Positions 8,017-36,754 of a stretch of 37,082 nt of DNA are shown here, one piece after another. Position 1 is the first letter of the stretch. Each line of letters begins with the position of its first letter. The stretch comes from a virus (lineage: Duplodnaviria; Caudoviricetes), in the IMG/VR virus record IMGVR_UViG_3300044670_001591, positions 1 to 37,082 of that record; one strand, given 5' to 3'. A model generated the notes under the pieces. The model made no database searches, was not told the DNA's origin, and saw nothing but the letters and a program-made list of their open reading frames with translations. The translations under genes and the position numbers were made by a program.

Positions 8017-11000
8017 CTACACGCCCTCTTCGATTTCCTCGGCGGTGTAGGACCGTGCGGTAAACTTGGTCTCTGAGGCGACGCCTGTAAGCTGGCGCAG
8101 CAGGTAGCCAAGGTCGCGCTGCTCTGTCACAGTCAAAATAGCCGGGTCGAGGAAGCCCGCGAGGTCAACTGACAGCATGGGCAGGAAGGCCCGGTACAGG
8201 GCATGCGTTGACGAGGCTGTGTACACACCACCTGCGTATTCGTAGGTGCTTTGGCCAGGGCTGAGCATGTCGTAAATCCCAAAGACAATCTTTTCGGTGG
8301 GCTTGTCCAACTGCGTAACCCGAACCTTCTCCCCAACCTCGCCCAACTCCATGCCAAAGTTGTTGATGTCCTTGCCGTAGGCCATTTGCAAGCCTCGGAC
8401 CATCTCACGTCCGACGGGTCCGGTCATGCCGCCAGCCAGGTTGAGCGCGGGCTGCACCGGCTCACCCGAGGCCATGCCCTTGAGTACAGCCAGGGTGTCT
8501 GAGATTAGCTGCATGCTGCCAAACGATGTCGCAGCCGGGGCACTGTACATGTAGGCGTCGTAGGGTCTGCCTTCGGTACCCAGCACTCGAGCATTTCGGA
8601 GTTCAAGGGGCAGGCGGCTCTTGCCGAAGTAGGTCCGTGCCGTGGCTTCACTACGCCAGAGCGGGTAATCGTAGGGCATAACGCCCTCTTGGTCTGTCAG
8701 GTATTGGTCGACCGACTCTGTGAGCCCCGTTTGGATTTGAGCGATTTTGCTGGTTCGGGACATTTTGTTGCTGTAGCCAAAGGTCGGGTCCAGCAGCGCG
8801 TTCATCTGCTGCCCCAGTGCCCTGCGCTGGAACGACCAGAACATGAAGAACTTTTTGAGGTACTTTTCTTCTACCTGCGACATCGGAGCCTGCCAGTCGT
8901 ACAAGGCCTTCTTGACCCGAAATGCCGCTTCTTCTGCGCTGACGCCTTCGTTCATGAGGTGCAGCCACATTCCAACGCGCTGACGTTCCTCGATGTGCTG
9001 GAAGAAGGAGAGAATGTTGTCGGCATTTTGACCGAACTCGTCTGCGTACTTCAAAACACCTTTCGGGGCATTCAGCCTACGCGTTACCCGCTTCACGCCA
9101 GAGGTTCCGACAAAGGAAGTCACAACGCCTTTGTCATGAGCCATCGCACGAAGCTGTGCCCAGGTGTACTTCTTTCCAGCAATCTCTATCAAATCCTGTG
9201 GGGTGCCATACTTTGGGTCGAAGAACGCAGTGATTGTTTTGTTGATGGCGCTGCCTACCGCAGAGGGCAGTGAGTTGGGCGCAGGTTCGCCGGACTCAGC
9301 CTTGAGTACCTTGCCGACATAGGGCAAGTGCTCTACCCCCGCTGCCGTGATGTCCGACATAAACCGAGTACCGGCTGCAGCTGCGTAGCCAAGTCCCTCT
9401 TCTAGGAAAATCTGTGACATGTTTCCGAACTGAATCATGACGGCGTACTTGGGGTCTGGCAAGAATAGGCCCTGCAGGATTGCCTGGTTCCAGATGCGGG
9501 TGAACGTCGAAGCCAGTTGTGCCCCTGCTCCTGCGTAGGCCCCTCCCTCAACTCCAGCCTCTGCCGCATCTAGGGAGTTGGCAAACTCGCTCATGTTCTT
9601 GTTCATCTGGGTAATCCAGCGGCGCGGTACGAAGGTTGTCACCTCGTCTTCTCTGCCAGTCAAAATCAACTCAGCGGCCTCCCGCCCATCCACGCCTCGG
9701 TTCTTGACGTTGTAGATAGCAAAGCCTTCCGCCAGCCGCTTGCCCGTGGCTTGACCTGTTTTTTGCAGATTTGCTGGGAAGCCCAGTCTAGACATCATGT
9801 CCAGCATGGCCTCGCCATAGTTGCCTAACTCGGCTATATCGTTACCTGTCCAAGCGTTTACCAGCTTTGCCAAGTTTCCGTCAGGGTCAGCGGCAATCTT
9901 GCTCAGGTTCCAACCCATCCGCTCAATCGCAGCAGCCTGCGTAACGGCAAGTGCTGCCTTGGTCATGCCTCTGTGGCCTGCCTTTGCTTTAAGGCTACCT
10001 GCCACCTGTTGTTCCTTACGACGTATCTCTGCATTGGCCTTTGCCTTAGCAGCAGCAGCCTCTGCCTTGTCAGCGGCTGAAGCGTTGACGTCGTCCAAAA
10101 TGCGTTTAGCGTCGTCAATGATTTTATTGCGGGGCGCGATGTAGAGCTTGAAGTCTCGCTTGGCTACAACCTTGGCGGTCTCTTCCAGCATGTGGTCTTG
10201 GAACTCGTCAAAGGTTGCGTTTTTGTTGTCATTGAGGAACTTTGCTGCTCTCGCGAATAGCGTTCCACCCTCGCTTTCAGTGAGGGCCTGTCCCACAAGC
10301 CACATACGGCTTAGTTGAACAAGGATAGAGTCATCTTTGGTCAGTTGCTCTGATTTGATTAGGTCCTGCTCGTTTCGCAAGTAATACTTGGCTGCACCCC
10401 AGCGGCTCTCGGGGTAAGACCCAGCAATCAACCCCATCTCGCCAGTGGTGTCGTCCAGCATATCAGTAACGAAGTCTTTGGCCTTCGTTGCGAACTCTGC
10501 GGGGTCCATCTCCCCGCGTGCAATCTTGCTCAGGGAGTCTACGATGTACTTGAAGTCAGCGTTGCGGTTGATTTCTGCGCCGAGGAACACCTGCTGTACG
10601 TCCGCATTTGTAGAGCCCGTTCGGGGAATGACCGGCGAAACAGTGTCCCGCAACCACACCCTTGCTTTGTTGAACGAACCGCGCAGGCTTTTGTCTGTGT
10701 GCGAGAACTCCACAGCAAAGCGGTCGGCCTGCTGAACAATAGCAGGGGGCACCAAGTTGTTGGGGTTTGCCGCCACCTTGTAGGCATCTGCCGTCCGACT
10801 TAGCACCCTAAAGAGCGAGGCCATTCCGCGATTCCCGGCGTATTGTTCCGAAGCCTCTTCTAACGCAGCAAGTGTGTCTTTCATCACTTTAGTGGCTTCA
10901 TCAAACTCCGGTTCCCAGAAGTTAAGTCTCTTCATGTATTCGCGCTGGCGGTTGTAGTCTTTCTTAGCTCCCTTTACGGACTTCTCCATCTGCGCGATTT

Positions 11001-13344
11001 TGTCGTCCAACACCTTTAGAACGTCAGCACCTACGTTATTTGCCACATCTCCAAGCTCCGTGTAGAACTGAACAAGCACATCGGCTCGTTCGGCATCGCC
11101 TACCGAAGGATCCAGTGACTTACGCATCAGCTGCTCTAGGTTGGCAGCTAGTTCCTCTGTTTCTTTTGTAGGCACTGGGGCGGCTCGACCCCTAATCACC
11201 GGTCGAATAGCACCTACAGTTTTGCGCAGGTTTTTCAAATCGGCCAGAGCCGCGCTGGCCAAAACAAAGTTGTCTGCCTTGACACGAAAGTCCAGAACAG
11301 CCTTCGACCTGGGAGAGCTATCTGCGCCCGCGAGCAGATTATCGAAGTCGTCGATTGCTTTCTTTTGACGAGCCGCGACATCACGGACGGCTCGAGCATC
11401 ATCTACCTTCTTTCTTGCCCGCGCTGCCCGCTTAGTGTTGGGGTAGCTCGCCTCAATCTGGATGCGGGCATTGATGGCATCGGCTAGACTTCTCTCCGCA
11501 TTTCGGGCCGTGCTATCGACAAGGCCTCTGTCGGGATTGCTCTGTACAAATCTCCTTGTCTGCTCGTCGAGGGCGTCCAAGAAGCTCTGGGCCTCGTCCA
11601 TCTTTTCCCACTCAACCGACCGTGCCCTTGCGCTTCGGTTAGCCTCTTCAAAGGCGTCCAAAACTACCTTGCTGGGGCTTGTATTAACGCCCAAATCTGC
11701 CTGGTAGAGCGCCCTAATCATCGCTGCAGGTCCGGGGCCTGCCCTTTTTTCAATGTCATTCAAGCTGATTTCCACGGCTTCCTGCAGCTGCTCACGAGTA
11801 AAGGCCACGTTCTCTGGCATACTTAAAAGCCGCTGGATCTCGTCCATGTTCTCTCTAATAATGTTCTCGGTCGTCTTCATGCTGGTTGCATGGTTGATTA
11901 GACCCAGCGACTGGTCAGTAACCGCCTCGATGCCCTTTACGGCTGCACCTATTCCCTTCTTAGAGAGCTTCGCTACAGAGCCGCCCACCCCCATCCAGAC
12001 GTCAGGGTCTATAAAGGTAAGCCCTGCGGCTGCAATGAAGTCCCCAATCGCCTCTGAGGCTTCGTCCGAGGTCATGTCGATGCCCGTTAAACCCTCAAAG
12101 ACGTTACGCGGAATGATAGTGGCGCCCTCCGCTGCGCCCGATAGCCCAGAAAGGAAGCCTCCAAACCCTGCCTGAAGGTACCCTGCGTCAGGGTCGCCAA
12201 ACTTAGCCTCTGCTCGGTCGAACAACGTGAACAGTTCCTCGCCTCGAGCCAGGTTGCGCATCATCTCGTCGCCGCCCCAGTCCTCACGTCCCGGTACAAC
12301 GAGATAGTTGCTCACCATCGTAAGCAAGCTCTGCCGTCCCGCCCAGTCCAAACCACCCCAGTTAAGACCTTCGTTGTAGGTGCGTCGGCCAAGGGGTGAC
12401 TGTGCGCTGATTTCTGCCCCAGCCCAGGAGCCTACAAAGGGCGCTACAATCTTACGAAACTCGCCCTCGGGCAGCATTTCAGCAAACTTAGATAGCAGAG
12501 AGTTGGGGTCCTCTAGCGACTCGCTATTTGCCCAATGCCGAATGTTTTCGCCGCCTGGGTCCAGCTGCAGCCCCATCAAACTGAGAGGCATCTTGACCTC
12601 GGCCAGGGGCGCTGTAATCTCGCCGCTCTCCGAAGCCTTGGTGTACCAGTCGCTCACCTCGCGCTTGGCCTTTGTGAACTCAGAGGCCGCAATGCTTTTG
12701 GCCTCGCTCGCTGTGTAGCTTGCGCGCTTCTCCAGGGCCAATGCCGTCCGCTCGCGGGCCAGTTTCTGAGCCGTCGCGTTCAAGTCTAGCGCACGCTCAC
12801 CGGACTGCAGCCCTTGTCCCTCGCCCTCAACCCCTGTCGAAAGCAGCAGCATGGATTCGGTTTGCACTTCCTTGGGAGACTCAAAGAACACAGGCTCAAG
12901 GGTAATACCCGGTACGCCCTCTTCAGCCGAGTCGAACGTGACTCGCATAGGCGGAGGTTCTACGCGCTCCTGCGCCTCAAGGTACTGCTGGCGCATGCGG
13001 AGCATTGGAACCATTTGAGGCCAAAGCCCAGGCTCGTCCCCCTCCGTCTCTGAATCTGGGCCAGGAGAAGGGGAAACCCGCTCTTCGGGAACGGAGGGGG
13101 CGAGCGGCGCAGGTGCTGCCTGCATGGGTTCGGGAGGCTCAGGGGCTGGCACGTCGAGCATGTTAAGGAACTCGGCCAACTCGTCTTTGCTGGGCTGCGC
13201 CGCTGGAGCCTGCGCCGGGGCCTGCGCCGGGGCCTCGCCCAGGTACTCTGCCTTGCTGATAGGCTTTGGCAGTGTCTCAAGGTACTCTGCCTTGCTGATA
13301 GGCTTTGGCAACTCGTAGGGGGACTTCTCGTAAGGCTCAGCCAC
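8017..13344 (-). CDS. Large internal virion (DNA ejection) protein, about 1775 aa
   Basis: Long helical ORF after the nozzle/tail genes. C-terminal region (ALYDW...KKFFMFWSFQRR) resembles podovirus internal proteins. AGGGAG RBS favours GTG 13344. Confidence 0.7.
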   Translation of the reverse strand: MAEPYEKSPYELPKPISKAEYLETLPKPISKAEYLGEAPAQAPAQAPAAQPSKDELAEFLNMLDVPAPEPPEPMQAAPAPLAPSVPEERVSPSPGPDSETEGDEPGLWPQMVPMLRMRQQYLEAQERVEPPPMRVTFDSAEEGVPGITLEPVFFESPKEVQTESMLLLSTGVEGEGQGLQSGERALDLNATAQKLARERTALALEKRASYTASEAKSIAASEFTKAKREVSDWYTKASESGEITAPLAEVKMPLSLMGLQLDPGGENIRHWANSESLEDPNSLLSKFAEMLPEGEFRKIVAPFVGSWAGAEISAQSPLGRRTYNEGLNWGGLDWAGRQSLLTMVSNYLVVPGREDWGGDEMMRNLARGEELFTLFDRAEAKFGDPDAGYLQAGFGGFLSGLSGAAEGATIIPRNVFEGLTGIDMTSDEASEAIGDFIAAAGLTFIDPDVWMGVGGSVAKLSKKGIGAAVKGIEAVTDQSLGLINHATSMKTTENIIRENMDEIQRLLSMPENVAFTREQLQEAVEISLNDIEKRAGPGPAAMIRALYQADLGVNTSPSKVVLDAFEEANRSARARSVEWEKMDEAQSFLDALDEQTRRFVQSNPDRGLVDSTARNAERSLADAINARIQIEASYPNTKRAARARKKVDDARAVRDVAARQKKAIDDFDNLLAGADSSPRSKAVLDFRVKADNFVLASAALADLKNLRKTVGAIRPVIRGRAAPVPTKETEELAANLEQLMRKSLDPSVGDAERADVLVQFYTELGDVANNVGADVLKVLDDKIAQMEKSVKGAKKDYNRQREYMKRLNFWEPEFDEATKVMKDTLAALEEASEQYAGNRGMASLFRVLSRTADAYKVAANPNNLVPPAIVQQADRFAVEFSHTDKSLRGSFNKARVWLRDTVSPVIPRTGSTNADVQQVFLGAEINRNADFKYIVDSLSKIARGEMDPAEFATKAKDFVTDMLDDTTGEMGLIAGSYPESRWGAAKYYLRNEQDLIKSEQLTKDDSILVQLSRMWLVGQALTESEGGTLFARAAKFLNDNKNATFDEFQDHMLEETAKVVAKRDFKLYIAPRNKIIDDAKRILDDVNASAADKAEAAAAKAKANAEIRRKEQQVAGSLKAKAGHRGMTKAALAVTQAAAIERMGWNLSKIAADPDGNLAKLVNAWTGNDIAELGNYGEAMLDMMSRLGFPANLQKTGQATGKRLAEGFAIYNVKNRGVDGREAAELILTGREDEVTTFVPRRWITQMNKNMSEFANSLDAAEAGVEGGAYAGAGAQLASTFTRIWNQAILQGLFLPDPKYAVMIQFGNMSQIFLEEGLGYAAAAGTRFMSDITAAGVEHLPYVGKVLKAESGEPAPNSLPSAVGSAINKTITAFFDPKYGTPQDLIEIAGKKYTWAQLRAMAHDKGVVTSFVGTSGVKRVTRRLNAPKGVLKYADEFGQNADNILSFFQHIEERQRVGMWLHLMNEGVSAEEAAFRVKKALYDWQAPMSQVEEKYLKKFFMFWSFQRRALGQQMNALLDPTFGYSNKMSRTSKIAQIQTGLTESVDQYLTDQEGVMPYDYPLWRSEATARTYFGKSRLPLELRNARVLGTEGRPYDAYMYSAPAATSFGSMQLISDTLAVLKGMASGEPVQPALNLAGGMTGPVGREMVRGLQMAYGKDINNFGMELGEVGEKVRVTQLDKPTEKIVFGIYDMLSPGQSTYEYAGGVYTASSTHALYRAFLPMLSVDLAGFLDPAILTVTEQRDLGYLLRQLTGVASETKFTARSYTAEEIEEGV
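13241..13310. repeat. Two exact 31-bp direct repeats (39-bp period) encoding LPKPISKAEYL
   Basis: aggtactctgccttgctgataggctttggca at 13241-13271 and 13280-13310. Confidence 0.95.
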
Positions 13345-13362
13345 GTCTTCTCCCTGCAACCC

Positions 13363-30444: not shown

Positions 30445-32283
30445 CTAACGCTTGGGCAAACCAAAGCGTCTACGCGCCCTCTCTGCCTCTCGTTTGTCCT
30501 GACGCTCTTCTCTGTGTTTGGCCCACCTGCGCTTCTGCCACTGCGCCGCCGTTAGGTCGGCGTAATCCCTACGCTCGTCGTCTTCGTCGCTCTCCGGTTC
30601 GACGTAGGGCTTGAACCGGGTAGGCATTTGCGTGGCGAACCAGCACGCCCACAGCAGTGCGCTGACCCGGTCCCAGTGGTGCTTCTCCCGACGGCCTCGC
30701 TGGTTCTCACCAGGCCGTAGGATTTTGAACGTCTCGCTTTCTACAACTTCTTTGTCTCGGCGGTAGCTGCTGATTTGCGCAAAGGTCAGGTCGCCTCGGA
30801 CGCGGAGCTTCTTGTCGAGCATGTAGTCAATCATGCGGCTCATTGCCTGCGCGTTGGTCTTCCGTGTTGCAGGTACTCCGGGTTTTCCAAATGCGTGATA
30901 GTACAGGTTCTTGATGTGGTATTCCTGCATGTCCCCTTCCCGGTTGGGTAGGGTCGCATAGTTACTGTCCGCAAGTACAAGCTGACTAAGAACGCCAAGG
31001 CCAACACCGTTATTCTCCACCACAACCATCGCGTCGTTGTATGCGCCAGCAAGCTCGCAGGTCACTCGAGCTACAAGTAGCGGGTCTGCTGTACGGCTAC
31101 TGAACTCGGCCACCTGTGTGACCTCTTCCTCAAATACCGACAATACTTGAATCGAAGCCTGGTCGCCTGCGCCAAAGCCAGAGGGGTCTACGCCAATGAC
31201 GTACTGGTGGTCTGGCTGAGGCTCTTCGTAGATTTGCAGCCCCTCTTCGTCGGGGTTCCACGGGATGCGGATTTGCTCTTCTAGGTTGGTGATGGCCTGC
31301 AGCGGCAGCGAGCCTGAGCCCTTATGCTGCCAGCACGAGACGGGGTCCATGGGGTAGAAGACCCAGAACAGCTGCGGGTCCCTTCGCAGGCGCGGGTTGG
31401 TCTTCATCATGTGGCGGCGGAAGGCCAAGTTCTCTAGTGTCAGGTAGGGTGCGCCCGGTGCGCTAACGGGGTCGTCGCCTCGAGGTCCGTACCTGCGCAG
31501 CCAGTTGATTTCCTCGGGCGTTGGCTTCCAGTCCTTTCGCCAGATGCGCTCATTTAGGTTTGAGCGGTAGAAGGGCATGAAGATAAAGCGGAAGCGGCCT
31601 GTCTGGTCACCCATGGTCTCAAAGCAGATGTCTCTGAAAAACTCTGCACTGGGTTCGGACAGGGGTGCGGGGGTGCTCTCCATGCACATCATGGCTTCTT
31701 TGCGGTTCACAAAGGCAGGCTCCATGACGTACCACTGGTTTTCTGCGGCGCGCATGAATGGCACCTCAGACAAAACGGCGGCATCCCACGAACGGCCAAT
31801 GCCCTGGTTGTCTGCGTCGAGCGAGAACGTGGCTAGGCTACCGCTGGGGCGACCGTCGCGCGTGAAGCTCAACTTGCGGTTTGGGTTGCCGCTAACGGTT
31901 GGCCTAATCTCTGGCGGCAGGTTGTAGTGCGTCCAGTTGATGTACTTGAACAAGTCGTCGGCACGCTCGCGCTTGTCCGCTAGAATGCCGCCCGTCTGGC
32001 CTGGGTTGAAGGCCGTTTGCAAATATGCGCAACTTGCATTCACATAGCTCTTCGTGCTCTGACGACTGGCCACCACAAGCGGCCAGCACTTGTGCCCTTC
32101 CTCTGTTCGCGGCGGGTCAGTCCAAAAGTCAAAGAGTTGTGTAGCCAGCGAGGGGGCTACACCTTTGATGTCGTACCGCTCGAGTTCCGAGGTTGATTGG
32201 TTCAGCACGGTACCGTATGCAGCCATCGTGGCCGCATAGTCCTGCGTCATCAGTTGGTCTATTTTTGTTTTAGCAAATCGCAT
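30445..32283 (-). CDS. terL: Terminase large subunit (612 aa)
   Basis: Walker A-like ASRQSTKS, Walker B AVLSEVPF, coupling motif MESTP, FMPFY, and RNase H-like nuclease motifs YVIGVDPSG, VVENNGVG, HWDRVSA. Confidence 0.92.
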   Translation of the reverse strand: MRFAKTKIDQLMTQDYAATMAAYGTVLNQSTSELERYDIKGVAPSLATQLFDFWTDPPRTEEGHKCWPLVVASRQSTKSYVNASCAYLQTAFNPGQTGGILADKRERADDLFKYINWTHYNLPPEIRPTVSGNPNRKLSFTRDGRPSGSLATFSLDADNQGIGRSWDAAVLSEVPFMRAAENQWYVMEPAFVNRKEAMMCMESTPAPLSEPSAEFFRDICFETMGDQTGRFRFIFMPFYRSNLNERIWRKDWKPTPEEINWLRRYGPRGDDPVSAPGAPYLTLENLAFRRHMMKTNPRLRRDPQLFWVFYPMDPVSCWQHKGSGSLPLQAITNLEEQIRIPWNPDEEGLQIYEEPQPDHQYVIGVDPSGFGAGDQASIQVLSVFEEEVTQVAEFSSRTADPLLVARVTCELAGAYNDAMVVVENNGVGLGVLSQLVLADSNYATLPNREGDMQEYHIKNLYYHAFGKPGVPATRKTNAQAMSRMIDYMLDKKLRVRGDLTFAQISSYRRDKEVVESETFKILRPGENQRGRREKHHWDRVSALLWACWFATQMPTRFKPYVEPESDEDDERRDYADLTAAQWQKRRWAKHREERQDKREAERARRRFGLPKR

Positions 32284-32969
32284 TGCAGCTGCTCGATTTC
32301 GTCCTGTGCCGCAAGGAACGAAACCGCAATGTGTTGGTTCAGCAGCCAGCGGCGCTCAATGTGCTTCTTGAGGTCCTCGGAGCAGTCCTTGCTCTGGCTC
32401 ATGACGTCTACGGTTTCTTGAATCGAGCCCTTTGGTCGAACAAATAAAATGTTCTGCAGAGCTACCTTGAGGTCCTGCTGCTCTTCTCGGGTCAGGGTCT
32501 GCCGCCAAATCTCAAGCCCGTCTTGGTAGTGGCCTTCGGTCAGGTATTCCTTAATCTCGGCAGGGTCTGCCTCGACCCAGATGGCGCAATCGCCGAATCC
32601 GAACTCGAAACTTTCGTCTTCGTGTAGTGCGGTCAATGTCATAAGGTCCGTGAACTGGCTTACCGTCATGCCCTCGAGCAGGGTACGGTTGAAGGCTCCA
32701 CTCGGCTCCGTCGGCATTTCGCCCATGGGGCTGGGGTAGTGGTAGTAGCCTCCGGTCTCCTTTTCCTCGTCCTCGTAGAAGTCAATCGACATGCCGCCGA
32801 GGTGGTCGATGGAGATGCTCTTGAGGCGTCGCAACTGCCCCTCGTCAAGGAGCGCGAATACAGCCTCGGGCGTTGGCGTGGTCTTCAGCGCGCCCATTAG
32901 GTTTGGGTGCAGCATGCCCTCGGGGGCCTTGAACTCTGGTATGTTGAACAAGGCCTTCAGAAACTTCAC
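32259..32969 (-). CDS. Hypothetical protein (236 aa)
   Basis: GTGA coupling with the upstream gene; 25-bp overlap with terL. Confidence 0.65.
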   Translation of the reverse strand: MKFLKALFNIPEFKAPEGMLHPNLMGALKTTPTPEAVFALLDEGQLRRLKSISIDHLGGMSIDFYEDEEKETGGYYHYPSPMGEMPTEPSGAFNRTLLEGMTVSQFTDLMTLTALHEDESFEFGFGDCAIWVEADPAEIKEYLTEGHYQDGLEIWRQTLTREEQQDLKVALQNILFVRPKGSIQETVDVMSQSKDCSEDLKKHIERRWLLNQHIAVSFLAAQDEIEQLQCDLLKQK

Positions 32970-33394
32970 GACGTCCCTCGCTTCAGTTTGAGTGGTTCTG
33001 CGTCAATCACTGCAGGCTCTGGGTTGCTTTGGTTAATGAAGTTGTCAAGGTTGCCGTAGTCGGGCAGTTTCTTTTTGACGGCCTTCTCGAGGCGGCTTGC
33101 CTCGCTCAGGGTCTGGCTCACCGTGGCTGTTAGTGTCGCCGTGGTGGTGTTGGTCTTGCGCGCAACCAGGCTGTGGCTAATGAGGGCGAGCAGGTCGTGG
33201 CAGGCCTTCGACATCGAGGGTGTTAGCCGTCCTGCCGCTGTGTAGGCCAGGACCTTGACCGTCAGTCGTTCAAATACGTCGGCGTCCCCGGCTACGTCGC
33301 AGCTGAGAATGTCGAGGTAGATTTCCTGGCGGATTTTTTCGGGCACCTCGGTGTAGTAGGCCCGAAAGCTCGCCGCTTCACCTTTGTCGGCCAT
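32966..33394 (-). CDS. Hypothetical helical protein, candidate terminase small subunit (142 aa)
   Basis: AGGAG RBS and own promoter motif. Only size and position support TerS; no diagnostic motif. Confidence 0.45.
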   Translation of the reverse strand: MADKGEAASFRAYYTEVPEKIRQEIYLDILSCDVAGDADVFERLTVKVLAYTAAGRLTPSMSKACHDLLALISHSLVARKTNTTTATLTATVSQTLSEASRLEKAVKKKLPDYGNLDNFINQSNPEPAVIDAEPLKLKRGTS

Positions 33395-34361: not shown

Positions 34362-34734
34362 TGTTACATTGAAAGCAGGCGGTAGACCTGGCTTTTGCGG
34401 CGGTGGCGAGGGGACTGTTACACCTTGTAACACCCCTGGGTGTGTCACTGTAACAGCAGTTTGGCCGGGGCATATGAAGAAGTTTGAGGGGACTGTAACA
34501 CTGTAACACTTCCAAAAAATATATATACATAAGTGTGCGTGTAAGTACACACACACACATGCCCTACGTCTATATTTTACCTGTTACATTGTTACAAGGG
34601 GTATAAAAGTAAATAAAACTACGGTAGAACCTGCCATATGCATGACACACTTTCGGGTGTTACAGATGTTCCAAGAACATGGGCTTTTTCGGCGATATTG
34701 CAGTTTGGCGCGATGTAACAGTTGGGGTGTTACA
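34362..34734. repeat. TGTWACA iteron array with dyad-symmetric AT-rich core; putative replication origin
   Basis: 11 perfect TGTTACA/TGTAACA copies, at 34362, 34416, 34426, 34449, 34494, 34502, 34582, 34590, 34658, 34714 and 34728. Confidence 0.8.
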
Positions 34735-34839: not shown

Positions 34840-35268
34840 ATGTCCCAGTCTCTCCGCCCTGACGACCTCGTAATCGGGGCGCTGGGCCAGAACTTTCTCG
34901 GTAAGGTTAAGGCCCTCGTCGCAGGTGCCAACGCAGTGTCTAAGGGCGACTCTGTGGTTGTGACCTCGCTGTCCTTTGGCCCCCGAGGCACTCCTCGCGC
35001 TGGTCAGGTTACGCGGTCAACCGCTGCGCCTGATGGCCTGGTGATGATTGCTTCCAACGACGCCGCTGTTGGCCGTCAGGTCGTGCTGGTGGATTGGCTT
35101 CCGCTTCAGTTCGACACCTCGGCAGCTGCTGCGGGCGACCCGGTCTACATCGCCGCCGACGGCTCTCCCACGCTTGCCTTGGGCACCGTGATTGTTGGCG
35201 CGGTCGTCGACGTCGGCACCATCGCTAACGGTGGCTCCATTATCTTGAAGGGCCCCGGCGTCGTCTAA
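34840..35268 (+). CDS. Stand-alone capsid cement-like (DUF2190-like) protein (142 aa)
   Basis: AGGAG RBS; AVSKGDSVVV...MIASNDAAVG...FDTSAAAAGDPVYI...IVGAV; own promoter and terminator. Confidence 0.7.
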   Translation: MSQSLRPDDLVIGALGQNFLGKVKALVAGANAVSKGDSVVVTSLSFGPRGTPRAGQVTRSTAAPDGLVMIASNDAAVGRQVVLVDWLPLQFDTSAAAAGDPVYIAADGSPTLALGTVIVGAVVDVGTIANGGSIILKGPGVV

Positions 35269-35288
35269 CCCCGACAAGGTTTCCCTCG

Positions 35289-35328
35289 AGCCCCAGTCCC
35301 TATTCTCCAGGGGCTGGGGTTTTTCTTT
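35289..35328 (+). terminator. Rho-independent terminator
   Basis: agccccagtccct / aggggctggggtt stem (with G-U pairs) followed by TTTTCTTT. Confidence 0.8.
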
Positions 35329-35400
35329 GCATAAACTTTGCTGGCAGTTTTTGTCGCCAAGACCATTCTTTTTTTCTTACCTCCCCTCATTAATGGAAAC

Positions 35401-35729
35401 TGTCCTGGCGAAAGCGAGGACACCCCCACCTTGGGGCGTGGTCTTCCGGACAGCTAAGTCGGCCTGTGGGCGGTCGTCCGGACTGAGGGCGCAAGGCGCC
35501 CGAGGTAACTTGTCCGACCGCAGGGAGGACCTGTAGGTCAGCGAGCGAAGCGAGTGACCGGGATTACAGGGGCGGTAACTTGTCCGACCGCAGGGAGGAC
35601 TTGTAGGCCAGCGAGCGAAGCGAGTGGCCGGGGCGACTAGGGGCCCCTAAGGGCCCTGGATGGGAGCGAAGCGACCTGTGACTACGGAGCGAGCGCAGCG
35701 AGCGGAGTTCCGGAGGGAGCGAAGCGACC
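35401..35729 (+). other. Cluster of GNA-triloop hairpins with tandem G.A mismatches (ssDNA signal or structured RNA)
   Basis: Seven stem-GA-NN-GNA-NN-GA-stem units, plus tgtcct..aggaca and gggcgc-aag-gcgccc hairpins. Confidence 0.7.
35504..35632 (+). repeat. 59-bp direct repeat x2 (70-bp period), 3 mismatches
   Basis: Copies at 35504-35562 and 35574-35632. Confidence 0.92.
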
Positions 35730-35758
35730 GGAGGCGATTTTTGCATTTTGGACGGTTA

Positions 35759-35900
35759 GGGGCCACACTATGGGGCCCAGTATTGCCCGGCCTACTATGG
35801 CCCCCCTGGGGCCATAGTTCCGCACATATTACCCGGCGCCACATATAACCGGGCACAATACCCGGCGGCCATAGTGAACACGGGCCACAATACCCCGGGC
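35759..35900. repeat. Periodic GC-block / ACA(A/C/T)TA-like repeat region with an 11-bp perfect inverted repeat
   Basis: cacactat, agtatt, tactat, catagt, cacatat x2, cacaatac x2 separated by GGCC/CCGG blocks; ACTATGGCCCC-cct-GGGGCCATAGT at 35794-35818. Confidence 0.65.
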
Positions 35901-36103
35901 CCGGCCCGACTTGGGGCGCCCGATGCACCGCGCACACCTTGACGCGTCAAGGGTGCCCGGAAGTTTTGACAACTGCGCATAACTGGCGGGGGACCTTGGA
36001 TATCGTGGGGGTCGTCTTCATCCCTCTCCCCGCTATAGGTTTTTTGTGGCATTGTGTCGGGGCCATTCAGGCAACCGGGCACCATGCCCATTGGATAGAA
36101 GAC

Positions 36104-36754
36104 ATGACCGATAGAGAACTTTACGCCCCTACCTTCGAACCTGACCGCCGGTCCGTGGTCCTCTGCCTCGGCCTTCTGACGCATGAGGGGCGCACACCGC
36201 GTCCCCTGTGGGGTGCTGCGGATCACATGCACGTGGTTGACGTGGTCTTCCGCGCGGCGCTTCGCGGCGTGGTCGGTGCCCAGCGTGACACGTTTGAGCG
36301 TCTCCCCTGGTACTCGCTGGCCTACGCTGCCGCCGACGATAACGCTGACGAGCAGGGCCAAGCCGAACCGGCGGCGGTTATTACCGTGGCCCTCGGCGGT
36401 GCTTACACGGCCTGGATGCTGCGTGAGGTGGCGGCCGTCCTGGCGGAAGTCTTCGACCAGCGCTCCGTGGCTGTCGTCGGGGCACAGACAAGCTTCGTCG
36501 ACCGTTGGGGACGTGACGAGGAAGCCCGGAACACAGTTATCGCGGTTGACGCGGGCGCTCGTGCCGGGGCTCTGGAGCTTGAGGCCCCGAGCTTCGACGG
36601 CTGGCCTTACGGCTGCGCAAAGAGCTTCGAACGAGCAGCGGACCGCGCGGCGGCGATGGTAGCGGACGGCCACGAGCCCGCCGAGGCTATCGCGGCCGTC
36701 TCCGATGCCATCGCTGTTGCACAAGTGCAGTTCGTGACGGGGGGTGGCCAGTGA
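36104..36754 (+). CDS. Putative early protein with SAM-lyase/DUF3574-like motif (216 aa)
   Basis: LCLGL strand, then E-PAAVITV, helix and FDQRSVAV. ATG 36104 is preferred over the track start at 35939. Confidence 0.5.
   Translation: MTDRELYAPTFEPDRRSVVLCLGLLTHEGRTPRPLWGAADHMHVVDVVFRAALRGVVGAQRDTFERLPWYSLAYAAADDNADEQGQAEPAAVITVALGGAYTAWMLREVAAVLAEVFDQRSVAVVGAQTSFVDRWGRDEEARNTVIAVDAGARAGALELEAPSFDGWPYGCAKSFERAADRAAAMVADGHEPAEAIAAVSDAIAVAQVQFVTGGGQ

Follow-up and report, generated by a model that had tools for sequence, protein, structure and literature searches.

An array of seven tandem-GA hairpins in the probable terminal repeat of an uncultured tailed phage

Introduction

The linear IMG/VR tailed-phage record IMGVR_UViG_3300044670_001591 (67% complete), whose 37,082 nt form the window analyzed here, raises the question of why a phage should carry, within one short non-coding segment, a row of similar small hairpins that all lie on the same strand. 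A preliminary description of this DNA had reported seven GA-NN-GNA-NN-GA units and had proposed a multivalent landing pad on single-stranded DNA (ssDNA) for priming, replication restart, end-processing, or nuclease protection. The source is an aquatic tailed phage, and the array likely lies within its terminal repeat. Literature searches of incomplete coverage returned no account of tandem-GA hairpins in phage terminal repeats, and no matching motif occurs in the available portions of the main text of PMC5737381, PMC2864571, and PMC6061790. The hairpin building block itself is a known one that occurs widely, and relatives of the phage do without the array.

Genomic setting

The minus strand of the window encodes the terminase, portal, scaffold, SU10-type adaptor, and internal virion proteins (36 open reading frames, ORFs, scanned), and the array occupies a non-coding gap between this leftward virion operon and a set of rightward genes, upstream of the terminase (Table 1). 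It lies ~0.8 kb from a cluster of heptamers and is flanked by a poly-C box (C-box, 35377) and a GCGATTTTT tract (35734). The ORF at 32966-33394 shares 119 of 256 features with T5-type small terminase subunits (TerS; Atlas score 0.92) and has a positional homolog of 22% identity in the related record L138; it has no match at E<=0.001 among PHROG and Pfam families and is a lead only. Elsewhere in the window, a 1,780-aa protein of the virion operon (8017-13359) is without a Pfam, PHROG, PDB, or motif match, and rightward exonuclease-like (phrog_704) and phrog_3704 genes (1-1566) converge on the end of that operon.

All 11 copies of TGTTACA/TGTAACA in the window fall within 34362-34734, where 2.15 would be expected across the whole window. 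This cluster is likely an origin, a reading adopted because a cluster of the identical heptamer adjoins an 825-aa primase-helicase in L138. That primase-helicase, present in two of five related records, is missing from the corresponding place in the window, and no primase gene was identified in the 67%-complete record. In further relatives the position of the cluster is kept and the repeat is altered (TGTCACA in L110 and L113, GTTACA-like in L255). To the right of the array, short ACAATACCC-type repeats just past the predicted end (35813-35902) resemble repeats in L223 and L224; beyond them lies a perfect 16-nt palindrome (35937-35952) with TTGAC on both strands, followed by TTGACA at ~35966. 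A similar palindrome is present in L223 and L118, and the element is possibly an early promoter or operator.

Table 1. Features of the hairpin array and its surroundings, with positions numbered along the window
Feature	Position	Strand	Basis or remark
Terminase large subunit	30445..32283	-	phrog_2 E 5e-17, PF17289 E 1e-8; near start of leftward virion operon
Candidate terminase small subunit (lead only)	32966..33394	-	Atlas feature match to T5-type TerS
TGTTACA/TGTAACA heptamers (n=11) around AT-rich core; likely origin iterons	34362..34734		
142-aa gene, no family match	34840..35268	+	ORF
Intrinsic-terminator-like site; would stop plus-strand read-through ahead of the array	35288..35322	+	
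Poly-C box after T-tract; predicted inner boundary of the repeat	35377..35386	+	Conserved in relatives
Predicted direct terminal repeat, ~380 bp; approximate inferred boundaries	35378..35762		Contig depth, homologous contig ends
Hairpin containing GCGAAAGC (35408-35415), the phage G4 origin mini-hairpin sequence	35401..35422	+	Sequence, fold
Plain 6-bp hairpin with natural compensatory variant	35487..35501	+	Run X5 variant
Unit 1, CC-GCA-GG core, four outer pairs	35512..35530	+	
Unit 2, GC-GAA-GC core, bulged outer stem	35536..35559	+	
Unit 3, duplicate of unit 1	35582..35600	+	
Unit 4, duplicate of unit 2 carrying the compensatory pair	35606..35629	+	
Unit 5, identical to unit 7	35662..35676	+	
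Unit 6, GCA loop	35689..35703	+	
Unit 7, last hairpin of the array; corresponds to the widespread element of hairpin and tract	35715..35729	+	
GCGATTTTT...ATTTT tract	35734..35749	+	Sequence; homologous tracts, contig ends in L185, L329, L359, L182
First rightward gene past the predicted end, likely an early gene, without PHROG match	36104..36754	+	ORF

The seven hairpin units

A scan for the pattern GA-xy-GNA-y'x'-GA with complementary arms recovered all seven units at the positions first reported, with cores starting at 35516, 35543, 35586, 35613, 35664, 35691, and 35717, all on the plus strand. The window contains 11 such cores in total, and the four outside the array (one on the plus strand and three on the minus strand) are all scattered. 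Dinucleotide shuffles of the 830-nt gap yielded a mean of 0.019 cores and a maximum of one (n=5,000), and shuffles of the whole window a mean of 1.2 and a maximum of five (n=200). The same range also holds four plain hairpins, one of them with GCGAAAGC. Parts of the array recur in contigs from six runs (X2-X6 and X8) other than X1, which may be the source run; the array is thus not an assembly artefact.

Units 1-4 are two copies of one 70-nt duplication, so that the array comprises ~5 independent units. The 59-nt direct repeat at 35504-35562 and 35574-35632 differs between its copies at three positions, two of which are the T-A to C-G compensatory pair reported at the outset (T35538-A35557 versus C35608-G35627); that pair is real. 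A second compensatory pair (C35490T with G35498A) is found in the neighbouring plain hairpin in the variant from run X5. Units 2 and 4 each have one outer C-G pair plus a bulged A. The first impression that structure rather than sequence is conserved is borne out only in part, as five of the seven units share GC-GNA-GC and four stem from the single duplication. As a separate observation, GGTAAC heads each 59-nt copy (35504-35511 and 35574-35581), the same segment in L181, L184, L185, and L256 is filled by GGTAAG and GGTAAT repeats, and repeats of this type are a possible duplex protein site.

Probable folding as single-stranded DNA

In all seven units, as well as in GCGAAAGC at 35408, a GNA or GNNA loop is closed by two G-C/C-G pairs. 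A duplex palindrome cannot have GA opposite GA, and DNA mini-hairpins form with no loops other than GNA; the units therefore most likely work in the form of folded ssDNA. Four observations support such folding, which had been proposed from the first: the GA/GA symmetry, the free loop N, the covarying outer pairs across phages, and the strand-specific coupling to a T-tract (the last two described below). In an available excerpt of PMC13037366, GNA loops alone form mini-hairpins, which are exonuclease-resistant, and two in a row bind ssDNA-binding protein (SSB) poorly. Nearest-neighbour folding of the region is not exceptional (z -0.74 as DNA and -1.77 as RNA); models of this kind miss mini-hairpins, according to the same excerpt (PMC13037366). 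A search of the window with Rfam 15 gave no match at the gathering threshold and five weak matches, none overlapping the array.

The hairpins could alternatively work in RNA, as a structured non-coding RNA or as a terminator or pause site (hairpin plus U-run) at a concatemer junction, for which the transcription-coupled packaging of T7 offers a precedent. The units do fold as drawn with RNA parameters, with the RNA z-score of -1.77 given above, and a T-run placed after a hairpin is reminiscent of a terminator; however, unit 7 reaches only -3.0 kcal/mol as RNA and was not called as a terminator, a terminator-like site already stands just ahead of the array, no plus-strand sigma-70 promoter was found, and the loops are GNA triloops, neither GNRA nor UUCG, without an Rfam match. 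We regard an RNA element as highly improbable. An N4-type promoter, a comparison raised in the preliminary description, is also unlikely, given that the rightward genes use the minus strand as template, whereas the hairpins are on the plus strand, and that no virion RNA polymerase was found in the 67%-complete record.

Relatives sharing the terminase

The terminase alone as a query returned no viral loci, and an alignment of terminases returned 160, mostly 32-47% identical; no cultured close relative of the phage was found. Conservation of the array among these relatives was ruled out (0 of 160 loci), and with no clustered array at any of them the multivalent landing pad fails as a conserved design. 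A scan for tandem-GA hairpins in general form showed no upstream enrichment, and five related whole records yielded no match to a strict pattern. The GA hairpin is not present in the left ends of FlowerPower, Immanuel3, and Manuel, in the parts of PaP2 that were read, or upstream of the terminase in Neko and Tiera.

One clade (L181, L184, L185, L249, L255, and L256) has the arrangement of the window on the strand opposite the terminase large-subunit gene (terL): a T-tract and C-box, then a variable stretch of 320-490 bases, and finally a single compact hairpin immediately ahead of A(A)TTTT. The corresponding spacing in the window is 357 nt. The clade hairpin is of the GA type in three of six members and another compact hairpin in the remaining three, and further hairpin types occur in L182, L217, and L564; the hairpins that relatives place at this spot include plain GCGAAGC and hairpins with TTTA, CTTG, or TT loops. 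Among the relatives read, the closest with enough flank (L110, L113, and L215; 44-45% terL identity) keep the iterons and C-box and have no such hairpin, which counts against an essential array.

These comparisons bear on whether the array could be the neutral product of slippage in a hypervariable repeat, with only the last unit, or none, being of consequence. Stable hairpins promote duplication, units 1-4 derive from one duplication, units 5 and 7 are identical, strains diverge right after the C-box, the sequence ahead of unit 7 is a different one in run X8, and unrelated short repeats fill the segment in relatives. Drift of this kind is very unlikely to be the whole explanation, as it sits poorly with a compensatory pair that accounts for two of the three differences between copies, with the second such pair in X5, and with the presence of 2-3 cores between the C-box and the terminal unit in the unrelated phages L271, L293, L326, L337, and L342.

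The terminal hairpin and tract as a widespread element

The last unit and its tract, expressed as GAGCGNAGCGA followed by GCGAWWTTT within 14 nt, were found at 109 IMG/VR loci, with a gap of 0-4 nt between hairpin and tract in 75 of them. With the hairpin flipped, the pattern occurred at 26 loci, and only 4 of these had a gap <=4 nt. Spacing was flat in a sample of prokaryote genomes, where both outer pairs were formed at gaps <=4 nt in 5 of 38 cases, versus 51 of 55 viral contigs. Among 81 distinct viral elements, outer pair 1 was complementary in 69 (50 expected from margins) and outer pair 2 in 64 (31 expected; C-G 33, G-C 29), and the loop N was A in 47, T in 14, G in 11, and C in 9. Covariation across phages is thus a property of the outer pairs and not of the inner GC-GNA-GC core, which is fixed; inner-arm covariation was ruled out, with GC/GC in 19 of 20 distinct elements when the arms were left free. 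A relaxed test that allowed any compact hairpin before a T-tract was not discriminating (20 vs 15 of 68).

Of the 109 loci, the first 80 were checked for terL by scanning the N-terminal 300 aa of each ORF of 370-800 aa that lay within 6 kb (145 of 148 ORFs scanned; three from L327 were omitted as duplicates of those in L305 and counted on that basis). The gene was present at 52 of the 80 loci, in the geometry of the window at 35, downstream on the same strand at 10, and otherwise at 7. When both outer pairs are required, the element is on the upstream side of terL in 13 of 14 terminase clusters (50% identity), a count drawn, like the others on terL proximity, from a collection (IMG/VR) that is enriched for terminase contigs and in which non-coding room is mostly upstream of terL. 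Orientation relative to terL is mixed (nine clusters versus five, with one cluster showing both). BLAST of the array or the element against cultured phages and plasmids gave short matches only, and no cultured terminase phage having both the element and known ends was found.

Other arrangements were also observed. In the L344 group (L303, L319, L322, L375, and others), the element is on the terL strand, ~1.1 kb upstream of a TerS-like gene and between two opposite-strand genes, a different geometry. Three or more GAGCGNAGCGA units spaced 5-30 nt apart, nearly always on one strand, occur at 104 viral loci (L006-L109), some of them on small contigs (2-5 kb) or in giant-virus bins; near contig ends, triple arrays were not biased toward the 3' side (5 vs 8 of 80).

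Evidence for a direct terminal repeat

The segment holding the array is probably the terminal repeat of the phage. It is non-coding and upstream of the terminase genes, as is the case for fixed direct terminal repeats, and in the portion of PMC3896407 available, podoviruses of the T7/T3, N4, and Beephvirinae types have repeats of a few hundred bp upstream of the terminase, as predicted here. At the inner boundary, the C-box is conserved in all six members of the clade described above and, by eye, in L110, L113, L215, and L217, and the X3 variant diverges directly after 35386. The physical end is predicted to lie ~10-30 nt past the GCGATTTTT...ATTTT tract.

Contig depth, which here is a per-contig mean summed over strains and not a copy number (X1 is one contig and may be the source), rises across the segment. 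For X8 it was 20.8 to the left, 49-62 inside, and 26 to the right; for X5 it was 8.4 to the left, 20.9 and 20.7 inside, and 12.3 in a mixed right contig for which 12.4 was predicted. The resulting ~2-2.5-fold depth between ~35390 and ~35762 in these two independent runs is weak evidence for a repeat, and run X2 fits poorly (5.7 and 8.9 predicted, 7.6 and 7.0 seen).

Contig ends may point to the same place. Among IMG/VR contigs with the family C-box, found with patterns chosen after the contig ends were seen, three of six end at the same GAT just past the hairpin and tract and three of six read through; L182 ends 4 nt beyond that shared end (the ends of L185 and L182 were read by eye from the output of a homologous-end search). 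Within the L276 group, the ends of L295 and L335 coincide to the base, and that of L351 falls 4 nt short. Contigs end within 300 nt on the 3' side of the element at 8 of 55 loci and on its 5' side at 1 of 55. L303 and L375 start 71-75 nt 5' of the element beside strain variation, and graph branches can mimic ends. The homologous-end search among terminase relatives listed coincident ends only in identical-length contigs common to both collections. In the record of the cultured phage FlowerPower, whose terminase is 49% identical to that of the L276 group and whose ends we take to have been fixed by experiment, the 253-bp end repeat opens, on the strand opposite terL, with a C-box preceded by an A/T tract. 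The predicted repeat of the window has these features too; that of FlowerPower is without a GA hairpin. In L276, L284, L273, and L347, which belong to the Beephvirinae terminase family, the hairpin is flanked by GATAGTG on its upstream side and GACTATC on its downstream side, an inverted pair ~230-250 nt apart, near the length of the FlowerPower repeat.

A hairpin so placed might be a terminase-coupled cut or stop signal made up of the last unit and the A/T tract, folding on the strand displaced during repeat duplication, with the upstream units serving as TerS-binding sites or redundant copies. The close spacing to the tract (0-4 nt at 75 of 109 loci), the distance of 10-30 nt to the apparent end, the position upstream of terL in 13 of 14 clusters, and the placement of other compact hairpins at the same spot in relatives would all suit such a signal. 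Known terminase sites, however, are read as duplex DNA, cultured relatives package without the hairpin, and the same core occurs in ColE1 and near the ends of three protein-primed phages (20-110 nt from the 3' end of the strand); a cut signal is an unlikely account of the array.

Comparison with known systems

As described in part of PMC4513846, replication of Streptomyces chromosomes from an internal origin leaves telomeres with a 3' overhang of ~300 nt, in which packed GCA-loop hairpins with sheared G:A pairs are bound by Tap. The array is similar in having GNA-loop hairpins, whose facing GA would give sheared G:A pairs once the strand is single, and that strand may likewise be a 3' overhang; in contrast to the telomeres, it belongs to a terminase-portal phage with a predicted direct repeat, lacks the terminal 13-nt palindrome, and would structure one end only. 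Streptomyces-type ends are inverted and carry a terminal protein as cap; no terminal protein, tap/tpg, or Tap-like gene is among the 36 ORFs scanned in the 67%-complete record.

Mini-hairpins of the d(GCGNAGC) and GCGAAAGC types are present at the origins of G4, St-1, and alpha3 and in RepB' ssiA (PMC13037366, excerpt). A high melting point and resistance to exonucleases mark the folded strand in this class. The array has GNA cores of this class (GCGAAAGC at 35408, GC-GNA-GC in five units, and CC-GCA-GG in two) but differs in its tandem GA/GA extension, sevenfold repetition, dsDNA phage context, and T-tract coupling. The N4 virion RNA polymerase promoters are likewise ssDNA hairpins with GNA-type triloops, although their stems of 5 bp are without GA/GA, as far as the same excerpt covers them (PMC13037366).

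A link to the ColE1 primosome region, drawn in the preliminary description, holds roughly. One core with a GTA loop lies at 1332-1342 of NC_001371.1, on the strand of RNA II and downstream of RNA I, and we assume the position of the ColE1 origin relative to it. The PriA consensus is GAAGCGG, and the core in ColE1, present as a single copy, is followed by GAAGCGG, with neither a T-tract nor a genome end. The n'-pas/ssiA region of ColE1 contains a single GA-GC-GNA-GC-GA core, which is on the displaced strand and lies downstream of the origin region (PMC3167613, in part).

The array could accordingly be an ssi/pas-type site for lagging-strand priming from the adjacent iteron origin, unrelated to any genome end. 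If the iterons ~0.8 kb away are the origin, the plus strand is the lagging template of a rightward fork, and G4 GCGAAAGC and RepB' ssiA CCGAAGG are of the same class (PMC13037366, excerpt), as is the ColE1 core in type. Such a site would nevertheless leave the T-tract coupling, contig ends, and depth unexplained; the window has GAAGCGA where ColE1 has GAAGCGG, and L138, with its iterons and primase, has no paired core nearby on the matching strand. A priming site of this kind is distinctly unlikely. On the features tested, the array falls outside the telomere, PriA-site, and N4-promoter families, and the best reading by analogy is that it would work like the mini-hairpin ssi signals and the Streptomyces overhangs.

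Proposed function

The reading we prefer, tentatively and with chances a little short of even, is that the hairpins form a protected, SSB-poor platform of folded ssDNA for priming and completing the chromosome end. The C-box and T-tract likely bound a repeat of ~380 bp, with the hairpins on the strand whose 3' end would form one physical end; if the repeat is as predicted, the 3' end of the plus strand would lie 20-40 nt past unit 7. A rightward fork from the adjacent iterons would leave the plus strand as an unreplicated 3' tail, and the hairpins, folding once this strand is single-stranded, would resist exonucleases and bind little SSB, giving a primase or end-processing protein a platform from which the end may be primed and completed. 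The units themselves, their symmetry on one strand, their neighbourhood of iterons, C-box, T-tract, and terminase, and the recurrence of the last unit ahead of terL in phages of unrelated groups are observed; the repeat and its limits, the origin role of the iterons, the 3' tail, and the action of a protein there are predicted. Counting against the platform, a direct repeat could protect only one of two 3' tails. Of the roles first listed (priming, restart, end-processing, and protection), end-processing gains most support because the array maps to a probable terminal repeat. The copy number probably reflects local expansion of one functional unit within a hypervariable repeat.

A broader proposal, possible but doubtful at present, is that many unrelated linear dsDNA phages, both terminase-packaged and protein-primed, share a previously undescribed, telomere-like tandem-GA/GNA hairpin just inside the 3' terminus as an ssDNA element that completes or duplicates terminal repeats and marks the genome ends of uncultured phages, with the window as its seven-fold form. 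To our knowledge, the duplication of terminal repeats and the completion of ends are poorly resolved outside T7/T3. With its fixed core, covarying flanks, and fixed spacing to an apparent cut site, the element is a precise target for mutation, and it offers a way to predict the physical ends of metagenomic phages. If the proposal is true, the chemistry of G:A-hairpin telomeres would extend from Streptomyces and parvoviruses to tailed phages.
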